The notes under the pieces are model-generated. The model saw only the letters and a program-made list of their open reading frames with translations. It made no database searches and had not been told where the DNA came from. DNA of 64,000 nt. Origin: an uncultured Acidimicrobiia bacterium (GTDB taxonomy: Bacteria; Actinomycetota; Acidimicrobiia; Spongiisociales; JAENVV01). Shown here piece by piece: positions 2,911-30,459 of this stretch. The DNA is taken from the NCBI GenBank assembly GCA_963835515.1, contig CAWIFX010000043.1:118261-182260 (forward strand), written 5' to 3'. The number at the start of each line of letters is the position of its first letter. The stretch's first letter is position 1. The translations under genes and the position numbers were made by a program.

Positions 2911-2999
2911 TCCTGAATTGCTTGGCGTGTCGGGTCCAGGGTCACGGTAACTGGTGAACGACGCTCTAGGCGGCCATCCGGGGTGGGGGCGCCGCTTGG

Positions 3000-10692: not shown

Positions 10693-10709
10693 CCATACGC
10701 GGAGCTAGC

Positions 10710-11614: not shown

Positions 11615-11735
11615 GTGGTGAGCCTATTAGGTGATTGAGTCCAATGGGTCTTCTGCCTCTGGTCGAAGGCTCCTTGGTCGGGGACCGTGGCACTCGGACC
11701 TAGGAGACCATGACACTGTCCCTCGAGGGAGATAG

Positions 11736-12377
11736 TTGATGACATCCAAAATCACGCTGACTGTGCTGATACTGCTGCTGGCTAGCTGCGGCGGGGAGTC
11801 GGCACCAGTCGTCGCCGCCGGGGAGGCTGCGACCCAGGTGCCTACGACCCAGGTGCCAACGACGCAGGCGACCCTACCCGAGGTCACCACGACGGTTCAG
11901 GTCGATGATTCGATCGCCGAACCCATGGACGAGGACATGGACACGGATGGTGACGAGCACGCGACCGATGAGTCTGACCATATGATGGAGATGGACCATT
12001 CAGCGACGACTGCCGATCTTGCCGACGAAGGGGCGCTAGTCGATCGGACCATCGAGGTTGTGATGACCGAATTCATGTTCGATCCGGGTCCGATTGATGT
12101 CGCAGCTGGTGAGACCGTTGAGTTCGTCGTGGTTAACGAAGGGGCGATTCGGCATGAGTTCCGCGTCACCACCCAGGAAGACATCGATCATCACATTGCC
12201 GAGGGTCACAGCGATCACTCCGAAGCTATCGAACCCGGGGTATTGGTCCTCGATCCCGGCGAGACCGGCTCCTTGCTCGTAACCTTCCACGAAGCCGGAG
12301 AGTTCGACATGATCGCCTGCCTCATCCCAACCCACTTCGAAGCAGGCATGGGTACCGAGCTGAACATCAAAGGCTGA
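11736..12377 (+). CDS. Cupredoxin-like (type-1 copper site) lipoprotein with acidic His-rich linker
   Basis: Lipobox LLASC|GG. Tandem QVPTT repeats. Acidic/His-rich segment (DEDMDTDGDEHATDESDHMMEMDHS). The C-terminal beta-sandwich has candidate T1Cu ligands H…C(LIPT)H(FEAG)M. Confidence 0.6.
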   Translation: MMTSKITLTVLILLLASCGGESAPVVAAGEAATQVPTTQVPTTQATLPEVTTTVQVDDSIAEPMDEDMDTDGDEHATDESDHMMEMDHSATTADLADEGALVDRTIEVVMTEFMFDPGPIDVAAGETVEFVVVNEGAIRHEFRVTTQEDIDHHIAEGHSDHSEAIEPGVLVLDPGETGSLLVTFHEAGEFDMIACLIPTHFEAGMGTELNIKG

Positions 12378-12383
12378 ATACGG

Positions 12384-12962
12384 TCAGGCAGCTGCGAATT
12401 CTCCGAGCAAACGGATCCAGCGTTCAAACGACTCGAGCAGCTCGACGAGCCGGCCGGCTGTCGTTGCGTCTGTTATGCGCCCTTCGGTGTCGAACAGGCT
12501 GTCGGCTCGAGGTATAAATAAGCTGGGGCTAGGCAGCACAAAAGCGCCCACCGAGACAAGCATCTGCTGAAGGGTCACTTGAGCCACCCGGGTTCCCCAC
12601 GGGCCGGTGGTGGCACCGGTGACCGCGACAGGTCGGCCATCGAGTCCCTGGGGGAGTTCCGATACCGAGAGCCAATCGATCATGTTCTTCACAACTCCCG
12701 GTACGGATCGGTTGTACTCCGGGGTAGCGATGAGAACGCCATCGGCTCGAGCGACTGACTCCCGCAATGCGGTCACGCCCTCGGGCGGTTGGTCGCTCAG
12801 GTCGTCGCTGAACACAGGCAACTCGTCTAGTCGGTCGAAGACTTCGAGATGGATCGACGGAGGGGCCAGGGACGTGGCCGCGTCCAATAGCCCCCGGTTG
12901 TAAGAGGCTTTGCGAAGACTCCCGGCGATACCGATTATTCGGACGGGCGTTTGATCGTGCAT
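12384..12962 (-). CDS. NAD(P)H-dependent FMN reductase (ChrR/YieF-like flavodoxin-fold reductase)
   Basis: …IIGIAGSLRKASYNRGLL… and …LIATPEYNRSVPGVVKNMIDWLS… are diagnostic of the NADPH-dependent FMN reductase family. Confidence 0.8.
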   Translation of the reverse strand: MHDQTPVRIIGIAGSLRKASYNRGLLDAATSLAPPSIHLEVFDRLDELPVFSDDLSDQPPEGVTALRESVARADGVLIATPEYNRSVPGVVKNMIDWLSVSELPQGLDGRPVAVTGATTGPWGTRVAQVTLQQMLVSVGAFVLPSPSLFIPRADSLFDTEGRITDATTAGRLVELLESFERWIRLLGEFAAA

Positions 12963-17038: not shown

Positions 17039-18418
17039 CTACTCCCGGTTGTTGGTGAACTTGAAGACTTTCCGTCCGCCCTCGCCTTCGATCACCACCT
17101 CGAAGGTCTTTCCGGCCGGCGCTTCAGGAAACTCCACCCGGATCTCCCAGTGGCCTTCGCCGGACACCGTGGTTGTGCCCCCGCCGTACGGCGATCCGAC
17201 CCACACCGTGCTGCCCGGCTTGCCAGTGCCCCAGAAGACGTCGTAGGGAACCTCTTCTGCACATGAGCCGTATTTCTGGTTCGCCGTGAAAGCGACGACA
17301 TCACGTTCCGGATTGGTGAACTCAAACACCTTGGAGTGACCATTGGCGTCGCTGACGGTAACCCGAAAGGATGTCCCGGCAGGAGCCTCAAACCGGACTT
17401 TCATCTCCCACCCGCCCTTGGCATTCACCTCGGCCGATGCGCCACCGTACTCAGAGCGAGCGGTCACCTTCGTGCCAGGCTCTGCCGTTCCCCAAAAGAC
17501 ATCCCAGTTTTCCGGGTTGGTCCCCAGCTTTTGGTGGGCGGTGAATTCGACGTTGACGTTACGCCGATAGGCGACCATCTCGAACACGGCCCTTCCGCCA
17601 TCGGAAGACTCGACGACAACCCGGAACGGCTCCGCATGAGGAGCTTCCGGAAACTTGACCGACACGGCCCATTCGCCCGATTCGGCCGCCCTGGTCGATC
17701 CTGAACCGTACTTCGACTCGACGAAGATCTTGGCGCCGGGAGTGGCGGTGCCGTAGTAGCGGTTGCCGGGGATCTCGGCGTCACTCGCTTCATACTTCTG
17801 GTGAGCGGTGAACTTGACCTCTCGGACCACGTAGACAACGGTGATCGAAGCCTCGGACTTGTTACCCGCCTGGTCGGTTGCCACGAACGCAGCGCGGTTG
17901 CGGCCCGGATTCAGGCGGAGCTTGATCGCCCAGTGGCCCTCGGCGTCGACGTCGGCCTCCCAGTCACCCGCATGCACCGTGGCGCCTGGTTCGGTGATAC
18001 CGCGGAACACAACGAACTCCTCGGTAAGTTCGGCCCCGTCCTCCGGTGAGGTAATCCTCAGGATCGGTGGCGTGGTGTCGACGTCACGAACCTTGTCGAC
18101 CACTTCGTCGGTCGGCTCATCCTTTTCAGTGTCGACCTCAGCGGTGTCGACTTCGGGCTTATCTTTCGGCTCTTCGGCCGGTTCGTCTTTGACCGGTTCG
18201 TCTTTGACCGGCTTATCAACGGGTGCCTCGGAATCGAACCATCCGCCGGTGGTGTCGGTCACGACCGTGTCGACCGTGTCTTTGGTTGGTTCAGGGCTAT
18301 CGAGTCGGAAGAATGAAAAGACGGAAGACCCGTCCGGATTGGCTACTTGAGCCGCGGCGACGCCTGCCGTAAGTACGACAAGAAACGTCGCCAGCAAGAT
18401 GATGAACTTCTTTTGCAT
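17039..18418 (-). CDS. Secreted repeat protein: signal peptide, acidic KDEP linker, Ig-like domain, then 3-4 tandem ~85-aa 'FxANQKYG…DVFWGT(A/G)xPG(S/T)KV…G(G/E)WE…FPEAPAG' domains
   Basis: N-terminal signal peptide (MQKKFIILLATFLVVLTAGVAAAQ). Internal repeats are clearly alignable to each other and to the C-terminal ectodomain of the anti-sigma factor at 19086..20039. Confidence 0.65.
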   Translation of the reverse strand: MQKKFIILLATFLVVLTAGVAAAQVANPDGSSVFSFFRLDSPEPTKDTVDTVVTDTTGGWFDSEAPVDKPVKDEPVKDEPAEEPKDKPEVDTAEVDTEKDEPTDEVVDKVRDVDTTPPILRITSPEDGAELTEEFVVFRGITEPGATVHAGDWEADVDAEGHWAIKLRLNPGRNRAAFVATDQAGNKSEASITVVYVVREVKFTAHQKYEASDAEIPGNRYYGTATPGAKIFVESKYGSGSTRAAESGEWAVSVKFPEAPHAEPFRVVVESSDGGRAVFEMVAYRRNVNVEFTAHQKLGTNPENWDVFWGTAEPGTKVTARSEYGGASAEVNAKGGWEMKVRFEAPAGTSFRVTVSDANGHSKVFEFTNPERDVVAFTANQKYGSCAEEVPYDVFWGTGKPGSTVWVGSPYGGGTTTVSGEGHWEIRVEFPEAPAGKTFEVVIEGEGGRKVFKFTNNRE

Positions 18419-18485
18419 GGGCTACCCCCCGGTAACTGGTCCGTTTGTGGTCACTTTGAGTGGTCACTCGCCTCAGCTCCGTGAA

Positions 18486-18528
18486 AGGTTTACTTCGGGG
18501 GAATCTTTTTTGGAAAGTAAACCTCAGA
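18486..18528. promoter_or_regulatory. 9-bp perfect inverted repeat (GGTTTACTT…AAGTAAACC) in the divergent promoter region between the secreted repeat protein gene and the ECF sigma gene
   Basis: Seen directly: GGTTTACTT-cgggggaatcttttttgga-AAGTAAACC, 50 nt upstream of the sigma start. It is preceded by the direct repeat TGGTCACT(N5)TGGTCACT at ~18448-18468. Confidence 0.35.
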
Positions 18529-18576
18529 GGGTGCCGATACGAGTAACAAGCGACACGAAACGGTTCCGGACCGCAG

Positions 18577-19089
18577 ATGAGACAGATGGAAGAGACCCAG
18601 GTCGTTTCCCGACCTGAACGCTTTGACGACTTCTACCGCCGCGAATTCAGGCTGGTAGTTGGTCTGGCATATGTGTTGTCGGGATCGCGCAACAGCGCAG
18701 AGGATCTGGCGCAGGAGGCGTTCATGGCCGCTCATCGCGAGTGGGAGAAACTCCAAGCCTATGACAACCCGGGTGCCTGGGTTCGTCGGGTGGTGGCCAA
18801 CAAAGCAGTTTCTGGCTTCCGTCGTTCGGCTACCGAGATGAAGGCCCTCGCCAAGCTCGCCGCCCGCCGGATCGAACCACTCAACGAGATGGAACCCGAA
18901 GACGCCGAGTTCTGGGGCCATGTCCGTGATCTCCCGAAGCGCCAGTCGCAGGCGATCGCCTTGTTTTATCTCGAGGATCGGCCCGTCGAAGAGATCGCCC
19001 GCATCCTCGGATGCGCAACATCTACCGCCAAGGTACATCTGCACAAGGGACGAGCCAACCTTGCGACGCGCCTGGGGGTGGAGGCATGA
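18577..19089 (+). CDS. ECF (group 4) RNA polymerase sigma-70 factor
   Basis: Region 2 (…EDLAQEAFMAAHREW…) and region 4 HTH (…EIARILGCATSTAKVHLHKGR…). The stop overlaps the start of the downstream gene (ATGA). Confidence 0.85.
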   Translation: MRQMEETQVVSRPERFDDFYRREFRLVVGLAYVLSGSRNSAEDLAQEAFMAAHREWEKLQAYDNPGAWVRRVVANKAVSGFRRSATEMKALAKLAARRIEPLNEMEPEDAEFWGHVRDLPKRQSQAIALFYLEDRPVEEIARILGCATSTAKVHLHKGRANLATRLGVEA

Positions 19090-20039
19090 ACCTCGACGAA
19101 CGCGCTCGCCAGGCCTCGGCCGGACTGCGGGCCACGGTCGCCGCCTCTCCGGTCTCGAGTCCGATCCCCGGTATGGCTCGCTGGGAATGGGTGCCCCGCG
19201 CCCTGGCAGCCGTCGGTACTGCTGCGGCGATAGTCGTCGTCGCCATCCTGACGATCCAGGTTGCTCCTCAGACCCCGGCCCCGATTACCCAGCCCCCGGA
19301 CGGCACGGTCATCCCGGAATTTATCCCACCGGTCGAAGACTCACTGCTCACAACGGATACCACCGAACCGACGACAACGACGTCGGCCAGAGAGGGCGAT
19401 CCGATAGCTCCATCCGGCACCGGGGAGACCGGCGAATCCGGCCAGGTACTCGTCGTTGACACTGAGGCTCCTGCGCTGGTGATCCTTTCGCCGGAGAACG
19501 GCCAGGTCTTTGAAACGGACGTCGTGAGGTTCTCGGGCACTACCGAACCTGGTGCCGCGGTCAGAGCAGGCCGCTACGAGGCAGATGTCTCATCGGACGG
19601 TAAATGGTCGATTGTGCTGGTCTTGAGTCCTGGCTCCAACCGGGCGTTGTTCACCGCTACGGACGAGGCCGGCAACGAAGCTACCGCGCAGGTGGTGGTT
19701 GATTTCAAACGGCCAGTCGCATCAACCACGACGACCAAGCCGAAGAAGGACACGACCACGACGACCAAGGCTGATTTTGTAGAGTTTTCAGCGAACCAGG
19801 TCTACGGGACGTGCCCATCGTCGCCGCCGTTCGATGTCTTCTGGGGCACTGCCCAACCGGGCTCCAAGGTGATTGTCACGTCCGATTACGGTAGCGGCTC
19901 GGTCCTTGCCAACGCCGACGGGGGTTGGGAGCTGCGCGTGGAGTTCCCGGAAGCTCCCGCCGACGTTTTCTTCCTCGTGACCGCCAAATCCGTGGCTACG
20001 GGTCGGGCCAAGTCGTTCGAGTTCGCCTACAAGCCCTAG
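19086..20039 (+). CDS. Anti-sigma factor: single TM, extracytoplasmic Ig-like plus one 'FxANQ…FPEAPA' repeat domain
   Basis: Translationally coupled to the ECF sigma (ATGA overlap). Short cytoplasmic N-terminus, TM helix (ALAAVGTAAAIVVVAILTI), and an ectodomain homologous to the 17039..18418 product. Confidence 0.7.
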   Translation: MNLDERARQASAGLRATVAASPVSSPIPGMARWEWVPRALAAVGTAAAIVVVAILTIQVAPQTPAPITQPPDGTVIPEFIPPVEDSLLTTDTTEPTTTTSAREGDPIAPSGTGETGESGQVLVVDTEAPALVILSPENGQVFETDVVRFSGTTEPGAAVRAGRYEADVSSDGKWSIVLVLSPGSNRALFTATDEAGNEATAQVVVDFKRPVASTTTTKPKKDTTTTTKADFVEFSANQVYGTCPSSPPFDVFWGTAQPGSKVIVTSDYGSGSVLANADGGWELRVEFPEAPADVFFLVTAKSVATGRAKSFEFAYKP

Positions 20040-20164
20040 GCATCCAGGTCGTGATCCAGGTTTCCTTTCGCTCCGTATAACCGTGCGGACCAAAAGAGGA
20101 AATCATTAACGATTCACAGGCGCTACCCGAACAAACCACAAAACGGCTGCGGACGTTCAACCTC

Positions 20165-20878
20165 GTGATGGGAGCGGCCCATCTCATTCAATCGATCGCG
20201 GTCCTGTTCCTCGCCAACGACTTCTCGCTTCCGGTGGTCGGCTCCTTCCTGTCCGGCCCGCCTGGATCGGGGGATTTCGAGGTTGTCAACCTGTTTGATG
20301 TGCGAGTGGCCTACGGGGTTGCTGGCTTCCTGTGGCTTTCGGCAGCTGCCCATTTCCTCGTGGCGTCGCCGGGTATCAACGATTGGTACAACCGGAATTT
20401 GGCACAACGTCGCAATTACGCTCGATGGATCGAATACTCGATCAGCTCATCGTTGATGGTCGTGCTGATCGCCATGCTCACTGGTATCGCCGAAGTGTCG
20501 GCACTTGTAGTCATCTTTGGCGTGAACGCGTCGATGATTCTCTTCGGATGGCTCATGGAAAAGTATGAGCAGCCCGGCTCGACCAACTGGCTCTCATATT
20601 GGTTCGGAGTTATTGCTGGCCTGTTTCCCTGGCTGGCTATCGGCATCTATCTCTGGACACCTGGGTCGGAGTCGTCACCTCCAGGGTTCGTCTATGCGAT
20701 CTTTGTCTCGCTCTTCGTGTTCTTCAACACGTTTGCGGTGAACATGGTGCTCCAGTACCGCCAGACCGGCAAGTGGCGTGACTACATCTACGGGGAGCGC
20801 GCCTACATCTGGTTGAGCCTGCTCGCTAAGTCAGCCCTCGCCTGGCAGGTATTCGGAGGAACCCTCGCCACCGGGTAG
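20165..20878 (+). CDS. Heliorhodopsin (7-TM retinal-binding protein with inverted topology)
   Basis: 237 aa with 7 TM helices. Matches hallmark heliorhodopsin blocks recalled from HeR 48C12: RW(I/V)EYS(I/L)SSS with the counterion Glu, FGVNASMILFGW, GERAYI(W/V)LSL(L/V)AKSALAWQ(V/I)F with the Schiff-base Lys in TM7, and (P)GFVY(A/G)I. Confidence 0.8.
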   Translation: MMGAAHLIQSIAVLFLANDFSLPVVGSFLSGPPGSGDFEVVNLFDVRVAYGVAGFLWLSAAAHFLVASPGINDWYNRNLAQRRNYARWIEYSISSSLMVVLIAMLTGIAEVSALVVIFGVNASMILFGWLMEKYEQPGSTNWLSYWFGVIAGLFPWLAIGIYLWTPGSESSPPGFVYAIFVSLFVFFNTFAVNMVLQYRQTGKWRDYIYGERAYIWLSLLAKSALAWQVFGGTLATG

Positions 20879-20917
20879 TGGCGTTTCAGTTCTGCTGGTG
20901 TTGGGTAAGCCCCGTCC

Positions 20918-21571
20918 ATGGGCGTATTCGAGCTGGATCGGGATGAACAGGGTCGGGGCGTAGCTCCTCAGGAGCTTCGTTGGGCGTTGGCTGGCGGAGC
21001 GCTGGTCGCCATTTTCGGATTCGGAATGATGGCTATCGCCGGTGGTATCTCCTCGTTCGAAGCCCGCAATCTGCTCGACGCAGCCCTTCCAACCATTCGA
21101 TTCCTCGCCTCGACGCTGGTCGCCGCCTCGACAACGATCCTTGCGCTGATGCTGGCGCTCATCGGCATCACGGCCAGCCACGACGCCAACTTCAAACCGG
21201 GATTCTTCAAACGCATACGACAGATCTCGACGCTGTGCATCCTGCTTCTCGCAGGTTCGGCACTGCTGTTGCTGTTCCTGACGGTCCCGATCGACGAGGC
21301 GGAAGGAATACAGCGTCGCTACGAAATCGTCTACTACCTCGTACTGGCCGGGGCAGCTGCCTCAACCGGGATGCTCGTGACGGTCATGCTGATGCTTCGA
21401 TATGCGGTCGAAGGAGTTATCGACGTGTTGACGCCCGGTGCCGACAGTCCGTTCGTGATGGATGAGGAAGACGCCGACGAAGGACACGAAGAAATCTCGG
21501 CGTTGGTCACTGACCCGACCACTCCCGTGGTGAGTGAGGCCGAGCTAGTTAGCGATCGAAACGCGAATTGA
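20918..21571 (+). CDS. Hypothetical polytopic membrane protein (acidic C-terminal tail)
   Basis: 4-5 TM helices. An internal ~75-nt stretch (21170-21245) recurs at 93% identity at 31741-31815. Confidence 0.5.
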   Translation: MGVFELDRDEQGRGVAPQELRWALAGGALVAIFGFGMMAIAGGISSFEARNLLDAALPTIRFLASTLVAASTTILALMLALIGITASHDANFKPGFFKRIRQISTLCILLLAGSALLLLFLTVPIDEAEGIQRRYEIVYYLVLAGAAASTGMLVTVMLMLRYAVEGVIDVLTPGADSPFVMDEEDADEGHEEISALVTDPTTPVVSEAELVSDRNAN

Positions 21572-21928
21572 CGACGACCGCTCGTTCGACTCGAAAGTGA
21601 TATCGGTAGCCACCGATCCCAGCACCATGCCCCCGATGGAATCACTCCAATCGACAGGGGGCCATGCGTCGGCCGATGTTTCTACTGACATGACGAACTC
21701 AACTGTGTGGGCGTTCCCTGCCAGAGCCGTACGGAGGGTGGTGTCGGTCGCCAGATCTAGGAGCGCCGTAGCGGATTCATCAATGGCCAGGCCAAGGTCC
21801 TCGACCCGGTCATAACCGAGGCCGGCCAGGTCGGCGGCTCGATTCGCCATGGACCGGACCACCCGTACCATCGCCGGATGGCCGGGCAGTTCCACAATCA
21901 TTGTCTCCGGGGTCGCAGGGTGTTCCAT
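21545..21928 (-). CDS. Anti-sigma regulatory factor, RsbW/UsfX-like with degenerate ATPase motifs
   Basis: ~128 aa with fold-level resemblance to GHKL anti-sigma kinases (…DLGLAIDESATALLD…), but the N-box Asn/His are absent. Divergent from the STAS gene. Confidence 0.45.
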   Translation of the reverse strand: MEHPATPETMIVELPGHPAMVRVVRSMANRAADLAGLGYDRVEDLGLAIDESATALLDLATDTTLRTALAGNAHTVEFVMSVETSADAWPPVDWSDSIGGMVLGSVATDITFESNERSSSIRVSIAN

Positions 21929-21966
21929 GGCTCGTATACTACGGCACCATCCAAGGGGAGGTCTCG

Positions 21967-22302
21967 TTGACACATCTAACGATTGAACAAAGTGAATCGA
22001 ACGGCAAGTGTGTCCTGACTACCGTCGGAGAGATTGACCTGGCCTCAGCGCCAGATCTGGAAAGTCGGCTCAGCCAGTGCTTGGGTGACGGACCGGTGGT
22101 AGTCGACCTGTCAGCGGTTTCCTTTATCGATTCGACCGGGCTGCGCGTACTCCTGGCTGCTCACTCGGGGGCCGGTGATGGCGGTAACGAGCTCGGACTC
22201 GTCGTGACCGACGGTCCCGTCACCAAACTCTTGTCGATAACGGGTGTTGATGGACACCTGAATATCTTCCGATCGGTGGATGCCGCCAGTTCTGATGCGT
22301 AA
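21967..22302 (+). CDS. STAS-domain anti-sigma-factor antagonist (RsbV/SpoIIAA-like)
   Basis: …VDLSAVSFIDSTGLRVLL… is the STAS signature with the phosphorylatable Ser in DST. TTG start preceded by AAGGGGAGG RBS. Confidence 0.75.
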   Translation: MTHLTIEQSESNGKCVLTTVGEIDLASAPDLESRLSQCLGDGPVVVDLSAVSFIDSTGLRVLLAAHSGAGDGGNELGLVVTDGPVTKLLSITGVDGHLNIFRSVDAASSDA

Positions 22303-22684
22303 TCAGCCTGACGGTCCCTTTAAGCTGATAATCCCAAGCAGCGCGGATCACGTCGCCACGGCTCGCTTGTTCATCGCCAGTCTGGGAAGGACGCTCGGAC
22401 TGCATGCCGAGGTGATCGATGATCTGCGGTTGGCTGTCTCGGAAGCCGTAACTGCCGCGATTCTTTCCGCCCGGTCATCCGAAGTCACCATCAGTGGGAC
22501 GATCGGCCCCGAAGGCGTCTCGGTGCGAGTTGGGCCGCTCTCTGACAATGGTGCCGCAGGCGAACCCGCCCCAACCGATCAGCCCTCCCTCGATCTCGGA
22601 TCGATCGTTCGGGCGCTTTTTCACAACGCTGCGTTTGAAGGAGATACGTTGGTTATTGCCGTCTCGTGGCGACCGCCCACATGA
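22295..22684 (+). CDS. Anti-sigma regulatory factor, RsbW-like (degenerate ATPase motifs)
   Basis: Overlaps the STAS stop (ATGCGTAA) and the sigma start (ATGA). …DDLRLAVSEAVTAAIL… is an N-box-like region lacking Asn/His. Confidence 0.5.
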   Translation: MRNQPDGPFKLIIPSSADHVATARLFIASLGRTLGLHAEVIDDLRLAVSEAVTAAILSARSSEVTISGTIGPEGVSVRVGPLSDNGAAGEPAPTDQPSLDLGSIVRALFHNAAFEGDTLVIAVSWRPPT

Positions 22685-23409
22685 CCGGTTCGGTCGAACA
22701 CGAGAACTGGTTCGACCGGCGCGACGATCCTGACGTCAGGCGTCAGATCGTTGAACGGTACGACGCGCTCGCCATTGGACTGGCCCAACGATTCCGGGGG
22801 AGGGGCGAGGCGACCGATGACCTGGTTCAGGTTGCTCGATACGGTCTCCTGAAGACTATCGATCGGTTCGACGTATCGGTCGGTGTGCAGTTCTCGACGT
22901 TTGCGACGAAGTCGATTCTCGGCGAGCTCAAACGCCACCTTCGAGACAAGGCTTGGTCGGTCCGGGTTCCGCGGTCGCTGCAAGAGACTTACTTGCGAAC
23001 CGGTCGAACCGTCGAAGAGTTGACCCAGAAACTAGGTCGCTCGCCGACGATTGCCGAGATTGCCGAGGAGCTGGAGATAACGGCTGAAGAAGTCCTCGAC
23101 GCCATGGATGCCGGCTCGGCCTTCACGGCAGCTTCGCTCGACCTGCCGGTCGGCGACGATGACGGTGGCTCAACGCTCGGCGACCTGTTGCCGTTCGAAG
23201 ACGAGATCCTTGGTCGATCAGACGAACGGGCCACGGTGTCGGAACACTTGAAGGCGCTTCCGGAGCGGGAACGGCAAATCATCTATCTCAGGTTCTTCGA
23301 AGCCAAGTCGCAGCGGGAGGTCGCCGACGAACTCGGCATATCTCAGATGCATGTTTCCCGACTCTTGAGGAAAGCTCTGTCGGACCTTCGGGTAGCCATC
23401 GACGCTTAA
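22681..23409 (+). CDS. Group 3 sigma-70 factor, SigB/SigF/SigG family
   Basis: Regions 2.x (…DLVQVARYGLLKTIDRFD…), 3 and 4 (…QREVADELGISQMHVSRLLRKAL…). Last gene of the STAS-RsbW-sigma operon. Confidence 0.85.
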   Translation: MTGSVEHENWFDRRDDPDVRRQIVERYDALAIGLAQRFRGRGEATDDLVQVARYGLLKTIDRFDVSVGVQFSTFATKSILGELKRHLRDKAWSVRVPRSLQETYLRTGRTVEELTQKLGRSPTIAEIAEELEITAEEVLDAMDAGSAFTAASLDLPVGDDDGGSTLGDLLPFEDEILGRSDERATVSEHLKALPERERQIIYLRFFEAKSQREVADELGISQMHVSRLLRKALSDLRVAIDA

Positions 23410-23414
23410 CGAAA

Positions 23415-23443
23415 ATGGGGACGGACCCGGTCCGTCCCCATTC
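23415..23443. terminator. Intrinsic terminator hairpin after the sigB-like operon
   Basis: AATGGGGACGGACC-C-GGTCCGTCCCCATT, a perfect 14-bp stem, followed by a CTTCTACTTTGTTGG T-rich tract. Confidence 0.6.
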
Positions 23444-23461
23444 TTCTACTTTGTTGGTTGG

Positions 23462-23722
23462 CTAGGCAGTCACGCCACGGGACCGGGCAGCCCGGTACAC
23501 GAGCAGGGTCACGATCGAACCTACGATCGAACCGATGATTCCCGAGGCGGAAAGCTCCAGGTTCCCTTCGAACACGAGGGCAGCAAGGGACCCACCAACG
23601 AAAGAACCAACGACGCCGAGCAGGATGGTGCCGAGCACGCCCATCGGGTCGTCACCTGGCACGATGAATCGGGCCAGAGCTCCGGCGATCAAGCCGACGA
23701 TAAGAAACGTAATGATGCCCAT
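23462..23722 (-). CDS. GlsB/YeaQ/YmgE-family small stress membrane protein (transglycosylase-associated protein)
   Basis: ~86 aa with Gly-zipper TM helices (GIITFLIVGLIAGALARFIVPG…) and a GGAGGA RBS. Start taken at the internal ATG. Confidence 0.7.
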   Translation of the reverse strand: MGIITFLIVGLIAGALARFIVPGDDPMGVLGTILLGVVGSFVGGSLAALVFEGNLELSASGIIGSIVGSIVTLLVYRAARSRGVTA

Positions 23723-23880
23723 GATTGATCCTCCTATTGGTTGGGCTTTCTTGTTGCCGGCCTGTACCCCGTGTCCTGGGAATCCAAACATGGTTCTTCT
23801 TCCTTTTCGGTGTTCTTTCTCTCCACGTTTGAAGCCTCGCTTGGAGGGGTAGGACAGGCCTACCTAGTGGAGGGCATTGG

Positions 23881-24909
23881 ATGTTGGATGAGCGTGACCG
23901 GGTTGACGTTCCTGAGCGGTTGAATGGCCCGGCAATTGCCGAGATGAAGAATGTGTCGAAGGTCTTCGCCTCGGGCGATGGCGTTCACGGCATCAATCTT
24001 TCGATTCCAAGCGGTTCCATCTTCGGTTTCATCGGTCCGAGCGGCTCGGGCAAGACGACCACCGTGAGACTGCTCACCTCGATCCTCGAGCCCACCGAAG
24101 GCGACGTGCGGGTCATGGACGAGGATCCGTCGAAATTCACTGAAGAGACCCGCAGTCGGATCGGCTACATGCCGCAGCGGTCGGTGCTCTACCCCAACTT
24201 GTCGGTTTGGGAGAACCTGCGATTCTTCGCGTCTCTGTACGGGATCGGTCGGGATCGGTCCCCACTCGACAAAGTGCTCGAGCTCGTCGAGCTTGATAGT
24301 CACGATCGCAAAAGGGTGTCGCAGATCTCGGGAGGGATGCGCCGACGGCTGAGTCTCGCCGCGGCCCTGGTTCATGATCCCCAGCTGATTTTCCTAGACG
24401 AACCCACTGCCGGAATCGACCCGGTGCTGCGGCGCAAGATGTGGGACCACTTCGAGTCGCTTCGTTCCGAAGGACGGACGCTGTTCGTGACGACTCAGTA
24501 CGTAGGCGAAGCGGCGTACTGCGACTATGTCGGCGTGCTGGCTGAGGGTCGTTTGCTACTCGTTGACACGCCTACCGGTCTTCGTCATGCCGCGTTCGGT
24601 GGCGATGTCCTACATGTTGACTTCCCGGCGCCGCCGACCCGTGACCTGGTCGCCCGGATCGCCACCGCTGTCGGCGCATCGGATCATGGATTTCTATCAG
24701 GACGCCGGGTGCGCTTTGTCGTGGAGGAGGCTTCCGAGGCCCTCCCGTTGTTGGGTGCATTCGTGAGCGACGAAGGTGTCGAGGTCGACGCCTTTGAAGA
24801 ATTCCTTCCTCCCTTCGACGACGTCTTTGTAGAGCTGATCGAGCAGCATCGGGCGAACGATTCGACGTTGGACGAAAGTGAAGAATCAGGCGAGCTGGTC
24901 CATGTTTAG
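23881..24909 (+). CDS. ABC transporter ATP-binding protein (ABC-2 exporter type) with C-terminal extension
   Basis: Walker A GPSGSGKTT, signature SGGMRRRLSLA, Walker B LIFLDEPTAGID. Confidence 0.85.
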   Translation: MLDERDRVDVPERLNGPAIAEMKNVSKVFASGDGVHGINLSIPSGSIFGFIGPSGSGKTTTVRLLTSILEPTEGDVRVMDEDPSKFTEETRSRIGYMPQRSVLYPNLSVWENLRFFASLYGIGRDRSPLDKVLELVELDSHDRKRVSQISGGMRRRLSLAAALVHDPQLIFLDEPTAGIDPVLRRKMWDHFESLRSEGRTLFVTTQYVGEAAYCDYVGVLAEGRLLLVDTPTGLRHAAFGGDVLHVDFPAPPTRDLVARIATAVGASDHGFLSGRRVRFVVEEASEALPLLGAFVSDEGVEVDAFEEFLPPFDDVFVELIEQHRANDSTLDESEESGELVHV

Positions 24910-26374
24910 CACCAACGGATTCATTCGCTCCTGGGCTTTCTTCCGCAAGGAAGTCGCTGAGCTGGTGCGCCAGCCCAAGCTGGTTGTCACGCTCGTGCTG
25001 GCTCCCTTCTTGATCCTGGCCCTTTTCGGCGCCGGCTACCGGCAAACGAATGGTCCGCTCCGAACGATCTTTGTGTCGGCGGATGAGGAGACCTTTCAGA
25101 CCGTGATAGAACCGCGCCTTGCCGAGCTTGGGAACGCGCTGGAGTCGGCCGGAGTCACCGGGTCGCGCGACTCTGCCATCGGAATGCTTCGGAGCGGGGA
25201 AGTCGACGTCGTGGTCGTCGTGCCCGACGACCCGGAGGCGACCATCCGCACCAACGAGCAAGCTGTCTTTGAAGTACTCCACGATCAGCTTGACCCATAC
25301 GAGCGAGCCACGATCGGCCTCATAACTCAGGCTGCCGTCGACGCAGTAAACCGGTCGATTCTTGAGGAGCTCGTTGCCGAAGGCCAGGTCCGGTCCGACG
25401 ACGCGGCCCTAACCGAAGCGCGTCAGACAAGTACGGCGTTGCGAGCAGCCATGGAGCAGGGTGATCAGCTTGCGGCTCGGAACGAGCGGAACCGACTCAT
25501 GGAGCAGCTGGACGCTTGGGCATCAGCCGACGCTGGGAACGGTTCGAGCGGACTCGAATCGGAGGAGGCCGGTTCGAACCCAACCGTGTTGCGCGACCGC
25601 GCCCAGCAGCTCGACGTTTCAAGTCAGGATTCATCCGAACTTGAAACCGTCAGGTCACTCGAAGCGGACCTGATAGAACTCGACGATGCGGCCGCAGAGT
25701 TTCGTTCCATCGAGCCGACGGTGATCGTAAGCCCGTTTGAAGTGGCCACCGACCTGGTTGGCTCGACCGAACTCAGCGTGACCGACTTTTATGCGCCCGG
25801 GGTAATTGCCCTGCTTCTCCAACATCTGGCGATCACCTTTGCCGGCTTGTCGCTCGTCCGCGAACGTGCGCTCGGTACGACGGAACTGTTCAAGGTTGCT
25901 CCGTTGCGCGCCACGCAGATGCTCGTGGGAAAGTACCTCGGCTATGCAGTTGTTGCTGCCGTCGTAGCGGTTGCTTTGAGCGGCCTCATGTTCTGGGGGT
26001 TCGGCGTTCCGTTCCTGGGGTCAGTCGCCGACTATGCCATTGTCCTGGCGCTGCTGGTGGTGGCGTCGCTCGGGGTTGGGTTCGTCGTTTCGTCCGTGGT
26101 CTCGTCCGATACCCAGGCGGTGAATGCCTCAATGATCATGCTGCTGATGAGCATCTTCTTCTCTGGCTTCTTCCTTTCCATCGAGCGGCTCGTGCCAGAA
26201 GTTCAGGCCGTGTCTTGGGCGCTGCCGATTACGCACGCCCTTGACAGCCTGCGCGATGTCCTGTTTCGGGGGTCCGGGATCGATCTGCGCACCACATTCG
26301 CTCTTGGGGGTGGTGCCCTTGCCCTGTTCGTCGCCGCCGCTGTCCTTACCCACCGCCGCTTAGCGGCAGACTGA
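24902..26374 (+). CDS. ABC-2 family permease with large extracytoplasmic loop between TM1 and TM2
   Basis: N-terminal TM, a ~230-aa periplasmic/coiled-coil loop, then 5 C-terminal TM helices. Overlaps the ATPase gene by 8 nt. Confidence 0.8.
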   Translation: MFSTNGFIRSWAFFRKEVAELVRQPKLVVTLVLAPFLILALFGAGYRQTNGPLRTIFVSADEETFQTVIEPRLAELGNALESAGVTGSRDSAIGMLRSGEVDVVVVVPDDPEATIRTNEQAVFEVLHDQLDPYERATIGLITQAAVDAVNRSILEELVAEGQVRSDDAALTEARQTSTALRAAMEQGDQLAARNERNRLMEQLDAWASADAGNGSSGLESEEAGSNPTVLRDRAQQLDVSSQDSSELETVRSLEADLIELDDAAAEFRSIEPTVIVSPFEVATDLVGSTELSVTDFYAPGVIALLLQHLAITFAGLSLVRERALGTTELFKVAPLRATQMLVGKYLGYAVVAAVVAVALSGLMFWGFGVPFLGSVADYAIVLALLVVASLGVGFVVSSVVSSDTQAVNASMIMLLMSIFFSGFFLSIERLVPEVQAVSWALPITHALDSLRDVLFRGSGIDLRTTFALGGGALALFVAAAVLTHRRLAAD

Positions 26375-26385
26375 AGAGGCCTCCC

Positions 26386-26886
26386 ATGTTTTCATTAAGC
26401 CCGGTTCCCCCCGGCGACCTAACCCAAGCCCGAATCGAGGGCCTTGCCGAAGATGCAGTACCCGGAGACGTGGCGGTCGAACTCGAGCATTGGGATGTCA
26501 AAGGCTGGTTCATCGATGTCACATTCGGCGTGCTGGCCGTTGTAGCCGGCGTGGCCGGTCTGGTCCTCCCGTTTCTGCCGGGATGGGCTCCGATCATCGG
26601 AGGAGTCGTGCTTTTGGCAGGCCGCATTCCGCCGCTCCGCCGCTTGCTGAGCCGCTTCATCATGCTCTCGCCGTGTCAGGGATTCCTCGATCGGTTGGCC
26701 CGGAATCCGAAACTGAGAAAGGTGATGGCCAAGGCACTCCTCCGCAAGAAAGTTCGCAGCGCCGTTGAGCCGAATGCCCGGCGTGAAATGGTAAATATCC
26801 TGGTCCGCAACGACGCCGAGAAGGCGGGGACCGGAGAAACGAATGCAAACACCGATCAAGCCTACGGCGGGGATAAGATGGTCTAA
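26386..26886 (+). CDS. PGPGW-type small membrane protein
   Basis: Two TM helices with the LPFLPGW motif and a basic C-terminus. Confidence 0.45.
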   Translation: MFSLSPVPPGDLTQARIEGLAEDAVPGDVAVELEHWDVKGWFIDVTFGVLAVVAGVAGLVLPFLPGWAPIIGGVVLLAGRIPPLRRLLSRFIMLSPCQGFLDRLARNPKLRKVMAKALLRKKVRSAVEPNARREMVNILVRNDAEKAGTGETNANTDQAYGGDKMV

Positions 26887-27836
26887 TGGATTGGTATCTG
26901 GACGACGGCGACAGCGAAGGCGCCACGGTCATCCGTCGCGAATTCGTCGATTATCTTCGCCGGCATGCCGACCCGTCCTCCGAGATTGATCTCGCCGCTC
27001 TGGCTTTCGCTGAGCTGGTCAACAACGGAGTGGAACACGCCGGAGGCCCGGTTTGGGTCTCGGTCGACTGGGCAGGTCGTCATCCGATCGTCTCAGTCAA
27101 TGATCTCGGGTCTTCCTTCCAGATGAGCGAGGTTGCAATGCCTGACCCAACCGCGGTCAGGGGACGAGGTCTAGCCATCGCCGCTGATCTGGCCGCCAGG
27201 CTCGAGGTGGCTCAAAAAGCCGGCGGCGGTGCCCGGGTTGAGGCCGAACTCAACGTTGATCGAGGTGACCAGCAGGATCTGGATCCGCCGCGCCGCACCC
27301 GCAACGTGCTCCCTGATTTAGCCGAAGCCGGTCCGGACGGTTTCGGCAGAGAGTCCTTCCTTCGGTCACTGGTGGTCCAAATGGCACAGGGGGTCGAACA
27401 CGCTCTCGGACCCATGGCGGCGGAGTCGGCGGTTGCCCAGGTGGGCGCCGATGTGGGTGGCCAGATGGAGACCGAGTTTCGATCGAGTCACCCCGGGCTT
27501 CGTGAGCTCATGACCCCCACCGAGACTGGCGACTGCTATGTGCGGCTCAAGCAAGCCATCGGTGGTGATTTCTACGTGCTGGAGGCCGACGAGGATCGAA
27601 TCGTTTTGGCCAATCGGGCGTGTCCGTTCGGTGAGGCAGTCCTGCGAGCTCCTGCGCTATGCCGGATGACTTCGAGTGTTTTCGGGGGAATCGCGGCTCG
27701 CAATTTTGGTGAGGCGACCGTGGTGCTTGAGGAGCGGATCGCGGTTGGCGACCCGGCGTGCCGCGTCGTTGTCTACCTCGGCGAGCAACCCGAGATTCCG
27801 CACGGGCATCGCTACCAGGCGCCAGTCCGTACCTAA
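26886..27836 (+). CDS. RsbW-type GHKL ATPase (anti-sigma regulatory factor-like) fused to a C-terminal V4R (4-vinyl-reductase-type small-molecule-binding) domain
   Basis: Intact N-box ELVNNGVEHAGG and a G-box-like region in the N-terminus. The C-terminus (…ANRACPFGEAVLRAPALCRMTSSVFGGIAARNFGEATVVLEERIAVGDPACRVVV…) fits the V4R Cys pattern. Confidence 0.6.
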   Translation: MDWYLDDGDSEGATVIRREFVDYLRRHADPSSEIDLAALAFAELVNNGVEHAGGPVWVSVDWAGRHPIVSVNDLGSSFQMSEVAMPDPTAVRGRGLAIAADLAARLEVAQKAGGGARVEAELNVDRGDQQDLDPPRRTRNVLPDLAEAGPDGFGRESFLRSLVVQMAQGVEHALGPMAAESAVAQVGADVGGQMETEFRSSHPGLRELMTPTETGDCYVRLKQAIGGDFYVLEADEDRIVLANRACPFGEAVLRAPALCRMTSSVFGGIAARNFGEATVVLEERIAVGDPACRVVVYLGEQPEIPHGHRYQAPVRT

Positions 27837-28798
27837 GCCAAGTAGTCTTCGGCGCCTTCCCTCACCGTCGCGTCGACGATCGCCGGACCATCTCCAACGA
27901 CGGCTAGAACAGCTCGCACCAATGATGATGCTGTCGGACTCCCGGCTGCCTCGGATCGGCGCTGTTGCCAGTCTGCCTGGTCGCGGAGAATGGCAGGCTC
28001 GTCGCACAGCAACGCGGCATTGAGGCATCGCAGCATCCAGACACCATCGAGAACCGCCTCGGTGGGCAGGTTCTTGATGGTGTCAGATAGCCGGGCTGCC
28101 AGCCTGTGGATCCGCAGGTCGAGCCATTCAAACCCTTCGGAGCGCTCGTGCGTGACGGGACCGACTGGAGCGGCCGGAACCTTCACAGATTCGATGGCTC
28201 GGCCGAGGTCCCGGATGTCGCGGCCGTATGCGTTGGCTCCCAGCAGTAGGGCGCGTTCGGCGGTCACGGCCGACCCGCCCATCACCACGGGCGTTCCCGA
28301 TTCGCGGGCAGTTGCCGCCATGCGACGAGCGCCAGGCAGGTTGCCGACCATCTGGCAGGACACGGTTATGCATCGGGGTGCCAGCTCGTGCAGAAAGGGG
28401 AGGAGCTGGCCGGGTGGGATCGGACCGTCCAGCGTGACAGTCTCAAAGCCTTGTGAACGGAGAGCTTGGGAAACCATTGAGAGACCCAACGTATGCCACT
28501 CGCCCTCGGCGCTCGTGACGAGAACCTCGCCAGGGGCGGTGGACTCCCGATCCACGTCGAGTAAACCGATCGTCTGCGACGTTATCGCCGTTGCACGATG
28601 CTCCTGGGCAACATTCCAGACGCCGCTTTCCCATTGAGACCCAACCCAATGTTGGGCCGGCGCAAGTAGCAGATCCATCAGCTCCGGTATCGCCATCCCG
28701 CCGGCGAGGGTCTGGTCGACCTGCGCCTTGAATGCCCGTGCGTCGAATCGGTTGAGCGCGTCGATGAGGTCGGTGCGGATGGCTTCGACAGCCGTCAT
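27833..28798 (-). CDS. Stand-alone cobalamin (B12)-binding domain protein, CarH/LitR C-terminal-module-like (no DNA-binding domain)
   Basis: N-terminal four-helix B12-binding-2 cap (…WVGSQWESGVWNVAQEHRATAI…) and a Rossmann B12-binding domain with an E-x-H-x-x-G variant of the DxHxxG motif (EGEWHTLGL). Overlaps the upstream PP2C gene stop by 4 nt. Confidence 0.65.
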   Translation of the reverse strand: MTAVEAIRTDLIDALNRFDARAFKAQVDQTLAGGMAIPELMDLLLAPAQHWVGSQWESGVWNVAQEHRATAITSQTIGLLDVDRESTAPGEVLVTSAEGEWHTLGLSMVSQALRSQGFETVTLDGPIPPGQLLPFLHELAPRCITVSCQMVGNLPGARRMAATARESGTPVVMGGSAVTAERALLLGANAYGRDIRDLGRAIESVKVPAAPVGPVTHERSEGFEWLDLRIHRLAARLSDTIKNLPTEAVLDGVWMLRCLNAALLCDEPAILRDQADWQQRRSEAAGSPTASSLVRAVLAVVGDGPAIVDATVREGAEDYLA

Positions 28799-30459
28799 AA
28801 AGCTGTGATCGCCAGAACGGTGATGTCGTCTTGGGACTTGCCGGCCGACCAGCCGTCAACTGCTGAAGCAATGGCATTCGAGATGGCCTTCGCTCCTGAG
28901 GCCGCCGCTGCGGAAGCGGTCTCGGCCAACCGATCCCGGCCGAACTCCTCTACGCCAAGACGGGCTTCGATGACCCCATCTGAGAACAGAAGCAGGGTAT
29001 CGCCGGGTGACAGTACGCCAGTGGTCGGGATCCACTCGGCGTCATCCATGAAGCCGAGTAGGACGCCGTGTGCATCGATGTCGCGTGTGGTGCCATTCGC
29101 GCAGATCACCATGGGGGCCGGGTGGCCGGCGGATGAGACCGAGTAGCGATGAGTGCCATCAGGGTCGGTGTCGATCTGGGCCAATACCAAGCTCGCGAAC
29201 GGGCGATTGTCCTGGGAACGGAGCATCTGGTTGATCGTACGGATAGTCGTGTCGGGGCAGCTACCGGCCAATGAGGCTGCTTTGACGGCCGAACGCATGA
29301 GTCCGGCCTGGGCAGCCGCGACAATGCCCTTCCCGGTCATATCGCCGATGGCCGCTATCGACCTGGTCGGGGACAGGGCGAAACAATCGTAGAAATCGCC
29401 TCCGAGAAGGGAAAGGTTCGTGGCGGCCTGGTAACGGGCAGAGGTCTCGAAAGATATGGGGGCCTCGAGAATGGTGGGTCGCACGGACGACACCAGTAAA
29501 TTCGTTACCGAAGCCTGTTCTTGAAAGAGCGCTGCATTGTCCAGGGCCACGGCCGCCCGGCGGGTGATGGCCGTGATCAGGGCGAGGGCCCGATCCGACC
29601 AAACTCCATCGTCACGTTCGACGAGGACGCTGCCGATTCTGACGCCTCGAGCCGCGATCGGGACGACCGTTCCGGATGCACTTGGGGATCTCGCCGGGTG
29701 GGGGGTCATCTCGGTGAGTTCGTCGTAGCCGACCTTACCCGATGCGTGGGCCAGTCGGTGCTCGGTAAGTTCCTTGAGCCTGCCCAGGGTCACGAGACGA
29801 CCCTGGTTGTTCGAGACGGCGGTCGCCACCTGTCCAGACAGAGCATCGGTTTGAAGATCGACCGTGCATCGATCCGCCAGGCTGGGTGCGATCAAGCCAG
29901 CCAAACGGTCAAGAATCCGGTCGACATTCAGTGCTCCCGAGAAGCTATCGCTGGCTTCGATGAGAAGAGCCAGATCCTGTTCGGTGGCGGTACGGGCGGC
30001 GTCGGCTGCCCGCTCGGCGATGCGCAGGCGGTCCCGTTCCAGTTCGACAGAGCTGCGTTCCGTGACGTCGTACACGACCCCGTAACCCGCCACGGGGACA
30101 CCATCCTCGACCTCGATGTGGCCTTGACCCTCGACCCACCTCACCACCCCCGACGGGTGGATGATGCGATGCTTGGTCGTGTAGTCCCCTCCGCGTTCGG
30201 CGAGACCCGCAACCAGTCCCGTGACGTCCTCGAGGTCATCGGGATGGATGAGCGCCGAGTATTCCTCGAATGTCCCGGCAAATCCGGTGTCCGTCACCCC
30301 GTAAATGCGCCGGGTGGTTTCGTCCCAGTTCACCTTGCCGGAGGCTGGGTTCCAACTCCACGTTCCGATGCCTGCAGCCGAGAGCAGGGCAGCCAGGTCG
30401 GGTGGTAGACGATTTGAAGGTGGCACGACAAGATCATAGGCGTTAGGCGGAGAGCCCAT
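28795..30459 (-). CDS. PAS-GAF-PP2C (SpoIIE/RsbU/RsbP-like) serine phosphatase
   Basis: N-terminal PAS (…WSWNPASGKVNWDETTRRIYG…), central GAF, and C-terminal PP2C metal-binding blocks (…GGDFYDCF…IGDMTGKG…FSDGVIEA…DDITVLAI…). Confidence 0.8.
   Translation of the reverse strand: MGSPPNAYDLVVPPSNRLPPDLAALLSAAGIGTWSWNPASGKVNWDETTRRIYGVTDTGFAGTFEEYSALIHPDDLEDVTGLVAGLAERGGDYTTKHRIIHPSGVVRWVEGQGHIEVEDGVPVAGYGVVYDVTERSSVELERDRLRIAERAADAARTATEQDLALLIEASDSFSGALNVDRILDRLAGLIAPSLADRCTVDLQTDALSGQVATAVSNNQGRLVTLGRLKELTEHRLAHASGKVGYDELTEMTPHPARSPSASGTVVPIAARGVRIGSVLVERDDGVWSDRALALITAITRRAAVALDNAALFQEQASVTNLLVSSVRPTILEAPISFETSARYQAATNLSLLGGDFYDCFALSPTRSIAAIGDMTGKGIVAAAQAGLMRSAVKAASLAGSCPDTTIRTINQMLRSQDNRPFASLVLAQIDTDPDGTHRYSVSSAGHPAPMVICANGTTRDIDAHGVLLGFMDDAEWIPTTGVLSPGDTLLLFSDGVIEARLGVEEFGRDRLAETASAAAASGAKAISNAIASAVDGWSAGKSQDDITVLAITAL

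Follow-up and report, generated by a model that had tools for sequence, protein, structure and literature searches.

A 48C12-type heliorhodopsin gene with a probable AUU start codon and sigma-factor genes as neighbours in an uncultured Acidimicrobiia genome

Heliorhodopsins (HeRs) of bacteria have been assigned a regulatory, non-pumping role (PMC8612252, PMC9529153, PMC9769723, PMC11109279), and experiments have established three partner proteins: glutamine synthetase (PMC9529153), photolyase (PMC9769723) and an ABC exporter (PMC11109279). In these partnered HeRs, the expected mode of action is a light-dependent protein contact made via basic cytoplasmic loops (PMC9529153, PMC9769723, PMC11109279). 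In terms of genomic context, the published HeR operons fall into ten groups, denoted as glutamine synthetase (GS), NAD synthetase, photolyase, MerR, TerC, ABC transporter, SDR, alpha/beta hydrolase, DUF2177 and DUF2238 (PMC11109279). Sigma factors are absent from the ten neighbour groups of Shim et al. 2024 (PMC11109279), and histidine kinases were emphasised by Bulzu et al. 2021, in whose paper the word "sigma" does not occur (PMC8612252). Here, we describe an HeR gene (open reading frame (ORF) 20165..20878, + strand) on a 64-kb stretch of DNA, contig CAWIFX010000043.1, the whole of which is denoted as the window. The HeR of the window belongs to none of the ten published operon groups, and its adjoining genes encode a single-pass protein with Ig-like domains on one side and an unclassified membrane protein on the other. 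We consider it probable that the gene encodes a functional HeR of the 48C12 subfamily, which serves as a regulatory photoreceptor in an Acidimicrobiia genome. An earlier annotation of the window without database searches, denoted as the sequence-only reading, had called the physiological role of HeRs still open, and this is a fair description considering that only a few partners have been shown experimentally (PMC9529153, PMC9769723, PMC11109279).

In the ORF listing of the window, the gene was presented as a GTG-initiated ORF of 237 aa, and the three hallmark blocks named by the sequence-only reading, RWIEYSISSS, FGVNASMILFGW and GERAYIWLSLLAKSALAWQVF, are all present in its translation. The identification of the product as an HeR was borne out. 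Pfam PF18761 (Heliorhodopsin) matched the ORF with E=5.8e-99 and 330.8 bits (cutoff 26.7) over profile positions 7-242 of 242, and the NCBIfam HeR equivalog NF038020 matched with 330.4 bits (cutoff 100) over positions 1-244 of 244. A PDB search returned the structures of 48C12 HeR, 6su3 (E=3.8e-78) and 6uh3 (E~4e-78), and, with the 237-aa product, Thermoplasmatales HeR 6is6 (E~5e-57). When a protein collection was searched, 7893 significant homologues were found, all of which carry PF18761, and the top homologues showed 91%, 84% and 83% identity. The family match is thus far above chance. No identical record was found when the 237-aa and 236-aa products were looked up by exact sequence. The gene is an ordinary 48C12-type HeR, one among thousands, and public data from metagenome-assembled genomes already contain proteins with 91-95% identity to it. 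The gene itself brings nothing new to the HeR family; what is mildly new is a non-canonical start common to the window and its closest relative, and a gene context that generates hypotheses.

To describe the active site, the positions named in the 48C12 structure paper (PMC7049168) were mapped through a HMMER alignment, with the window HeR numbered in a 257-aa version of the protein. Among 43 functionally named positions of 48C12, 38 are identical in the window HeR. The Lys of transmembrane helix 7 (TM7) and the Glu of TM3 had been set beforehand as a check, and both align in register, with 48C12 K241 corresponding to the Schiff-base Lys K242 (20828..20830, +) and E107 to the counterion Glu E110 (20432..20434, +). 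The alignment also places Ser238 (20816-20818, +) at S237 of the SxxxK motif, and it runs end to end for both HeR 48C12 and the Thermoplasmatales HeR. The Ser residues that stabilise the counterion, S79 and S114, are in register with S76 and S111 of 48C12, and the cavity residues H23, H80, N16, N101 and Y108 of 48C12 are all identical in the window HeR. The hydrophobic barrier L12/L96/L227 is identical except for L227I, the Gln26/Ser242/Trp246 cluster is identical to that of 48C12, the fenestration residues Asn138 and Asn207 are kept, and E149, E230 and R104 are further identical positions. The five positions that are not identical are R91W, D127E, Q213M, K218R and L227I, where the Met at Q213 is shared with the HeR of a Thermoplasmatales archaeon (TaHeR).

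Regarding topology, the Lys and Arg residues in the predicted cytoplasmic segments number 3 in the N-terminal tail, 4 in the BC loop, 1 in the DE loop and 4 in the FG loop (12 in total), while a single one, R66, was counted by eye on the other side of the membrane. This distribution represents a positive-inside pattern with the N-terminus inside, the inverted topology typical of HeRs, and the predicted topology of the window HeR fits it. The gene was further compared with HeR-bearing contigs of relatives, which are denoted by L numbers. Between the window and L010, a relative with 86% nucleotide identity, codons 21-257 exhibit 47 synonymous and 13 non-synonymous codon differences, and this pattern indicates that the gene body is under purifying selection. 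Judged from the sequence, the product is a seven-transmembrane protein with an intact active site and a standard member of the 48C12 subfamily. A pseudogene reading was considered, and it was rejected in view of the residue conservation and the substitution pattern.

The ORF 20165..20878 begins at the first GTG past an in-frame stop at 20078-20080, and the frame stays open for 28 codons 5' of this GTG, with no in-frame ATG, GTG or TTG between the stop and 20165. The start at 20165, which the sequence-only reading had adopted, is probably 60 nt late, as the homologues and 48C12 align 20 codons farther 5'. Close homologues are 251-263 aa long, with an N-terminus about 20 residues longer than that of the 237-aa product, and they share a conserved RLRxFNLVMG segment in which L22, R23 and N26 of the alignment are invariant. 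The translation of the window 5' of the GTG (…TTKRLRTFNLV) aligns with these N-termini, and the 237-aa version is left without the RLRxFNL segment and without the counterparts of 48C12 L12 and N16. In the 48C12 subfamily, Leu12, which belongs to the hydrophobic barrier, and Asn16, which belongs to the Schiff-base cavity, are almost fully conserved (PMC7049168). When the 20 upstream codons were added, the alignment to 48C12 began at chain residue 9 instead of 19 and the score rose from 265.9 to 278.4 bits. In the 257-aa version, the alignment to the 48C12 structure reaches residue 12 and the NF038020 profile begins at residue 15, which is 6 residues ahead of the GTG.

In a DNA alignment, the window codon ATT at 20105..20107 (+) is aligned with TTG in L001, ATG in L002, GTG in L011 and L093, ATC in L010 and CTG in L090; the homologous start positions are 20105 in the window, 10001 in L010, 641 in L090, 1028 in L001, 5746 in L002 and 10001 in L011. 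A Shine-Dalgarno-like sequence, AAAGAGGAA, was read from the sequence at 20093..20101 (+), about 5 nt 5' of the ATT, and its GGAGG-like part, AAGAGGAA, ends 5 nt ahead of the ATT. A GGAGG-type sequence stands at the same distance of about 5 nt in L001, L002, L010, L011 and L090. The closest genome, L010, is likewise without a canonical in-frame start, and the gene call on record for L090 uses an upstream ATG. Within codons 1-20, 7 of the 12 differences between the window and L010 are at third positions. Because the upstream codons align with the homologues and 48C12 including L12 and N16, the start codons coincide and the Shine-Dalgarno spacing fits, the HeR coding sequence (CDS) is very probably 20105..20878 (+), a gene of 257 aa with an ATT (AUU) start and a TAG stop, which is also in line with PF18761, NF038020 and the homologue lengths.

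Translation could instead begin at the GTG or ATG at 20165/20168, giving 236-237 aa, or the gene could be decaying and have lost its start codon. The absence of a canonical in-frame start upstream of 20165, which L010 shares, would fit this explanation, and so would two other genes of the window that look frameshifted, a sign that the sequence is not free of errors or decay. Nevertheless, we consider a shortened or decayed gene improbable. The 20 upstream codons are open and align with the homologues and 48C12 through the functional L12 and N16, the NCBIfam profile begins before the GTG, and the Shine-Dalgarno sequence is correctly spaced for the ATT, whereas none was seen by eye before 20165. 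Moreover, two independent assemblies have ATT and ATC where the relatives have ATG, GTG or TTG, and the 47 synonymous against 13 non-synonymous differences speak for purifying selection on the gene body. Bacteria rarely initiate at AUU or AUC, and such starts are weak, infC being the classic case; a weak AUU start would suit a low-copy sensor. Gene callers that are limited to ATG, GTG and TTG will shorten the HeRs of the window and of L010 and drop two functional residues, which matters for anyone expressing or aligning these proteins.

The best species-representative genome matches of the window were all labelled Acidimicrobiia (Actinomycetota), and L010 is collinear with window positions 9431-30866 (~21 kb) at ~86% nucleotide identity. 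These two results place the window in a related but distinct species of an uncultured Acidimicrobiia lineage. By its Acidimicrobiia placement, the host is a monoderm, as expected for HeRs (PMC8612252). In terms of protein identity, the HeR of the window shares 93% with that of L010, 84% with that of L011 and 95% with that of L012 over the 200 residues on the contig of the latter. The sole part of 9431-30866 that did not align to L010 is 11628-12386, which includes an ORF without a family match (11736-12377). Regarding the retinal supply, about 70 ORFs across the 64 kb were scanned against Pfam, and among them no match was found to polyprenyl synthase, SQS_PSY, CrtI, lycopene cyclase, Blh or the bacteriorhodopsin (type-1) family; photolyase and glutamine synthetase were not found either. 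Some HeR hosts are known to be without a retinal pathway (PMC7771536). The full 64 kb was also scanned for Rfam families and tRNAs, without a match.

Upstream of the HeR gene, an ECF-type (extracytoplasmic function) sigma factor is encoded at 18577..19089 (+), with Sigma70_r2 and Sigma70_r4_2 domains and an NCBIfam sigma70-ECF superfamily score of 62 bits (cutoff 42.9). It is followed at 19086..20039 (+) by the gene of a 317-aa single-pass membrane protein, the ATG of which overlaps the sigma stop by 4 nt (ATGA). The extracytoplasmic Glucodextran_B/Big_13 Ig-like domains of this protein are paralogous to those of a secreted Ig-domain protein, identified by its domain matches, that is encoded divergently at 17039-18418 (-). 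The sequence-only reading had described the two genes in front of the HeR gene as an ECF sigma/anti-sigma pair; the sigma factor was supported by its domains, whereas the anti-sigma half was not, as Pfam and NCBIfam searches of the 317-aa protein, and of its first 71 residues separately, found no anti-sigma domain (zf-HC2, RskA etc.), even at E<=0.1. As such, "anti-sigma" is a label given by position, suggested by the ATGA junction and the single-pass architecture.

The spacer between the 317-aa gene and the HeR gene is 65 nt long, both genes are on the same strand, and there is no terminator-like hairpin on the + strand between them. Within the spacer, a candidate promoter or operator motif, CATCCAGG...CGCTCCGTATAA (ATCC-N16-CGTA; 20053..20080, +), has blocks that are invariant in five relatives: CATCC(A/G)G…CGC(T/C)(C/T)CGTA(T/G)A is constant, while the rest of the spacer and its flanks vary. 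The ATCC-N16-CGTA geometry resembles that of ECF-type promoters. When the window was searched with ATCC-N16-CCGTA for a second copy as a regulon test, the HeR site was the only match, and one match equals the chance expectation. A sigma-70 consensus promoter scan of 18300-23900 gave none. The ECF sigma gene itself is preceded by conserved blocks, GTAAACC...CGAGTAAC. The intergenic region 18419-18576 is ~90% identical in the window, L002, L010 and L011, which exceeds the conservation of the flanking coding sequence; it contains a direct repeat, GTGGTCACT-N4-GTGGTCACT, together with an inverted pair, GGTTTAC/GTAAACC, and has no Rfam match.

Downstream, a 217-aa multi-pass membrane protein without a family match is encoded 39 nt past the HeR gene (20918..21571, +). 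It is followed on the opposite strand by a 142-aa protein (21545..21973, -) that is weakly RsbW/RsbA-like, as RsbA_anti_sig (E=1.4e-4) and RsbW (E=4.5e-4) both matched below their cutoffs and HATPase_c_2 gave E=0.063. Next come a STAS anti-anti-sigma factor (21901..22302, +; PF01740, E=7.6e-19), an RsbW-type anti-sigma kinase (22280..22684, +; PF13581 HATPase_c_2, E=1e-9) and a SigB/SigF/SigG-family sigma factor (22666..23409, +; TIGR02980, 266.9 bits with a cutoff of 234.35) that has Sigma70 regions 2, 3 and 4. A strong terminator-like hairpin at 23414-23442 closes this STAS–HATPase_c_2–SigB/F/G operon. With the overlapping junctions of the STAS, kinase and sigma genes, and with a PP2C phosphatase gene on the opposite strand at 28795-30459, the SigB-type partner-switching module is complete. 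The partner-switching operon had been taken for an immediate neighbour of the HeR gene; the cassette is real, yet the genes at 20918-21571 and 21545-21973 (-) intervene.

Farther 3', the genes encode a GlsB-like protein, an ABC-2 transporter, an HATPase_c_2–MetOD1 protein, a B12-binding protein, a PAS–PP2C protein, BrkB, glutamate dehydrogenase and a large hybrid histidine kinase. The ABC-2 transporter (23881-26374), with separate ATPase and permease, lies 3 kb from the HeR gene. The 316-aa RsbW/RsbA-like protein at 26886-27836 (+) combines HATPase_c_2 with MetOD1 ("methanogen output domain 1") and is kept beside the SigB cassette in L010 and L090. The gene of the 321-aa stand-alone B12-binding protein (27833-28798, -) follows that of the PAS + SpoIIE (PP2C) phosphatase (28795-30459, -), whose stop overlaps the start of the B12-binding protein by 4 nt. 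The B12-binding protein has an extra C-terminal domain and carries the signature of the CarH photoreceptor, Wx9EH (W56x9E66H67) and ExHxxG (E100xH102xxG). Its best PDB match, 8j2w/8j2x, is annotated as "cobalamin-binding protein" and covers residues 5-302, the C-terminal domain included (E=1.6e-25); we take these two entries to be the structures of photocobilin from Zhang et al. 2024. In the photocobilin paper, STAS, SpoIIE and PP2C neighbours of a photocobilin are noted (PMC10979010). This photocobilin-like protein and the PP2C phosphatase, 7 kb downstream of the HeR gene, suggest a B12-based light input to the SigB cassette, and the pair is a second and better-connected candidate for the light input to the SigB switch.

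Comparing the neighbourhood among relatives, the 317-aa-type gene followed by the HeR gene is kept in every locus with a comparable upstream flank (L001-L005, L010, L011 and L090), to HeR identities as low as 79%, and an ECF sigma gene stands upstream of the HeR gene in every locus of the clade whose contig reaches that far. L093 probably has this arrangement too, judging from its ECF sigma gene, the offset of which equals that in L011. The downstream genes are less constant. The cassette of membrane protein, RsbW-like protein, STAS, RsbW, SigB and HATPase-MetOD1 lies directly past the HeR gene in the window, L010 and L090. In L011 and L093, the cassette is displaced by a 4.3-kb insertion, and in L011 the 217-aa protein stays with the cassette and not with the HeR gene. 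According to translations read by eye, the insertion of L011 encodes an 869-aa multi-pass membrane protein and an apparent ABC-2 transporter; no carotenoid genes were seen in these ORF translations, on which no family scan was run. The 217-aa membrane protein is absent in L003 and L012. The block from the HeR gene to BrkB (20918-30459) is present at its full 9.6 kb in the window and L010, is shorter in L090, which is without the ABC-2, B12 and PP2C genes, and is replaced by ~2 kb of unrelated genes in L003-L005 and L012/L094. As the cassette is absent or displaced in close relatives, it represents an island that varies within the clade, and the HeR does not have it as an obligatory partner.

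Beyond the clade of the window, only sigma factors, ABC ATPases and B12-binding proteins recur near HeR genes among the families of the window neighbours. Sigma-70-family ORFs were sought iteratively in 172 HeR loci, and sigma genes within 1.3 kb of the HeR gene on the same strand were found in three further lineages, while that of L108 is on the opposite strand. In the L144 group (L050 at 1545-3604, L053, L130, L131, L135, L137, L139, L142 and L144), which is marine or brackish with HeRs ~99% identical, the order on one strand is the HeR gene, 87 nt, an RsbW-like gene, 7 nt and a SigB-like sigma gene. In L028 (UBA5794; 9947-12404), an ECF sigma gene comes 135 nt after the HeR gene, with the gene of a 317-aa single-pass protein next, all on one strand, and in L120 an ECF sigma gene lies 5' of the HeR gene on the same strand. 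With 79 HeR representatives at 90% identity, the density of sigma genes was 3.3 per 100 kb within 1.5 kb of the HeR gene compared with ~1.0 beyond, a 3-fold difference (binomial p=0.026). The association of HeR and sigma genes is suggestive, not established. The repeated occurrence of sigma and anti-sigma genes next to HeR genes, seen in a few separate lineages of actinobacteria, is undiscussed in the literature that was searched, and it provides a testable hypothesis, the light control of alternative sigma factors.

In L037 (4002-4838), L070 (12012-12923), L125 and L128, which belong to an Acidimicrobiaceae-like lineage, HTH_17/MerR regulators with a B12-binding domain (CarH/LitR-type) are encoded 1.3-1.6 kb past the HeR gene on the same strand, which fits the published "MerR" neighbour group (PMC11109279).

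As for how the protein might act, the AUU at 20105 behind a good Shine-Dalgarno sequence would yield the 257-aa protein, probably at a low level. By analogy with its family, the HeR would bind all-trans retinal, absorb green light at ~540-555 nm and undergo a slow photocycle without net ion transport, and its long-lived, light-activated form may alter a partner protein by direct contact via the positively charged cytoplasmic loops. Among the local genes, only the adjacent sigma-factor regulators are candidates for such a partner, and we think it doubtful that the partner is among them (19086-20039, or the membrane protein and RsbW/STAS/SigB of 20918-23409). Several points weigh against the account of the locus given so far. 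The SigB cassette is missing in L003-L005, whose HeRs are 83% identical, and in L012/L094, with 95% identity over 200 residues, and the link between the HeR and a sigma module comes from synteny within one clade. When the clade of the window is counted once, a hand calculation lowers the support for the enrichment to p~0.12. The HeR motif differs from GTAAACC...CGAGTAAC, so membership of the HeR gene in the regulon of the upstream ECF sigma factor is unsupported. Furthermore, the 64-kb window holds no retinal-synthesis gene (crtE/B/I/Y, blh) and no published HeR partner, and the AUU start is itself deduced from sequence comparison.

It is possible, though short of probable, that the partner is an enzyme or transporter of the known kind (glutamine synthetase, photolyase or ABC), encoded elsewhere or as the ABC-2 transporter at 23881-26374, and that the sigma neighbours are incidental. 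All three experimentally shown partners of bacterial HeRs are of this type (PMC9529153, PMC9769723, PMC11109279), about 61% of HeR genes do not share a transcript with an adjacent gene (PMC11109279), many loci have ABC ATPase genes at a distance of 2-5 kb from the HeR gene, and the SigB cassette is dispensable at the HeR gene of close relatives. However, the glutamine synthetase and photolyase genes are not in the window, the local ABC-2 transporter is 3 kb off and past the hairpin at 23414-23442, and OmrDE, the shown ABC partner, differs in kind as a heterodimeric multidrug-resistance exporter. We regard it as unlikely that the HeR feeds light into alternative-sigma control, either via the transmembrane helix of the 317-aa protein, as in sensory rhodopsin II-HtrII, or via the downstream membrane and RsbW-like proteins, so that light would free an ECF or SigB-type sigma factor. 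The shared strand and the 65-nt gap without a terminator between the anti-sigma-like gene and the HeR gene speak for such a pathway, as do the arrangement kept in the window, L001-L005, L010, L011 and L090, the sigma and RsbW-like genes just past the HeR gene in the independent L144 group and L028, and the second, photocobilin-like photoreceptor coupled to a PP2C phosphatase in the same island; in the searchable literature, no paper mentions "heliorhodopsin" and "anti-sigma" together. On the other hand, the enrichment is not significant after allowing for shared ancestry, an anti-sigma domain is undetectable in the 317-aa protein, the SigB cassette is absent beside the most similar HeRs, and the L144 group is effectively one species.

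In its most extended form, the HeR would be the membrane photoreceptor of a light-to-sigma pathway acting on the 317-aa protein and/or the SigB cassette, would form with the photocobilin-PP2C pair a two-photoreceptor island that sets a light-stress regulon, and would be held at a low copy number by a drifting weak start (ATG/GTG/TTG/CTG/ATC/ATT); this version we consider decidedly improbable. A role that is not mainly sensory, as a light-driven proton transporter like the viral V2HeR3, a carotenoid-antenna harvester or an enzyme-like protein, seems very improbable. A viral HeR has been shown to transport protons (PMC9448325), HeRs in general have been proposed to share a conserved carotenoid site (bioRxiv 10.1101/2025.11.27.691015), and the fenestration residues N138 and N207 are kept, but the window HeR groups with 48C12, which according to the family literature is without ion transport, and a weak AUU start would better suit a low-copy sensor than an energy transducer. 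Taken all together, a functional 48C12-type HeR with a regulatory role in light sensing is the explanation that we prefer.

Other features of the window are as follows. A beta-lactamase-family gene at 1764-2910 (-) is apparently split by a frameshift, with Pfam positions 2-223 in ORF 2041-2910 and 222-316 in ORF 1764-2129. Likewise, a COX1-family oxidase subunit gene at 61339-62725 (-) appears frameshift-split, with profile positions 88-341 in ORF 61339-62448 and 6-79 in ORF 62168-62725. These two are either pseudogenes or the result of assembly indels. An RsiG-like protein, from the family to which the c-di-GMP-dependent WhiG anti-sigma factor of Streptomyces belongs, is encoded at 52408-52932 (+), and a class III adenylate/guanylate cyclase at 45101-46351 (-).

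Among described systems, the window HeR is most readily compared with HeR 48C12 from a freshwater actinobacterial fosmid (6SU3, 6UH3). The two proteins share 55% identity over 244 aligned residues without large indels, are of the same length class, and have a long AB loop with Pro40 and positive charges on the cytoplasmic side; the window HeR differs in its Acidimicrobiia host, its ATT start, its genomic context and the five named positions. TaHeR (6IS6) aligns over residues 12-254 (E=3e-60), with the Lys, Glu and Ser motifs in register and a Met at the 48C12 Q213 position as in the window HeR, whereas its similarity is much lower, its AB loop is shorter and its host is an archaeon. Sensory rhodopsin II-HtrII, in which a non-pumping rhodopsin is encoded beside a membrane-spanning signalling partner, would be a functional analogy only: it belongs to another rhodopsin family with the opposite orientation, and the window locus has neither a HAMP domain nor an MCP transducer here. 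The AbHeR-glutamine synthetase, TfHeR-photolyase and OcHeR-OmrDE systems involve the same family as the window HeR, which keeps the basic residues of the FG loop; in contrast with these systems, their partner genes are not adjacent here, and the neighbours of the window HeR gene are sigma-factor regulators.

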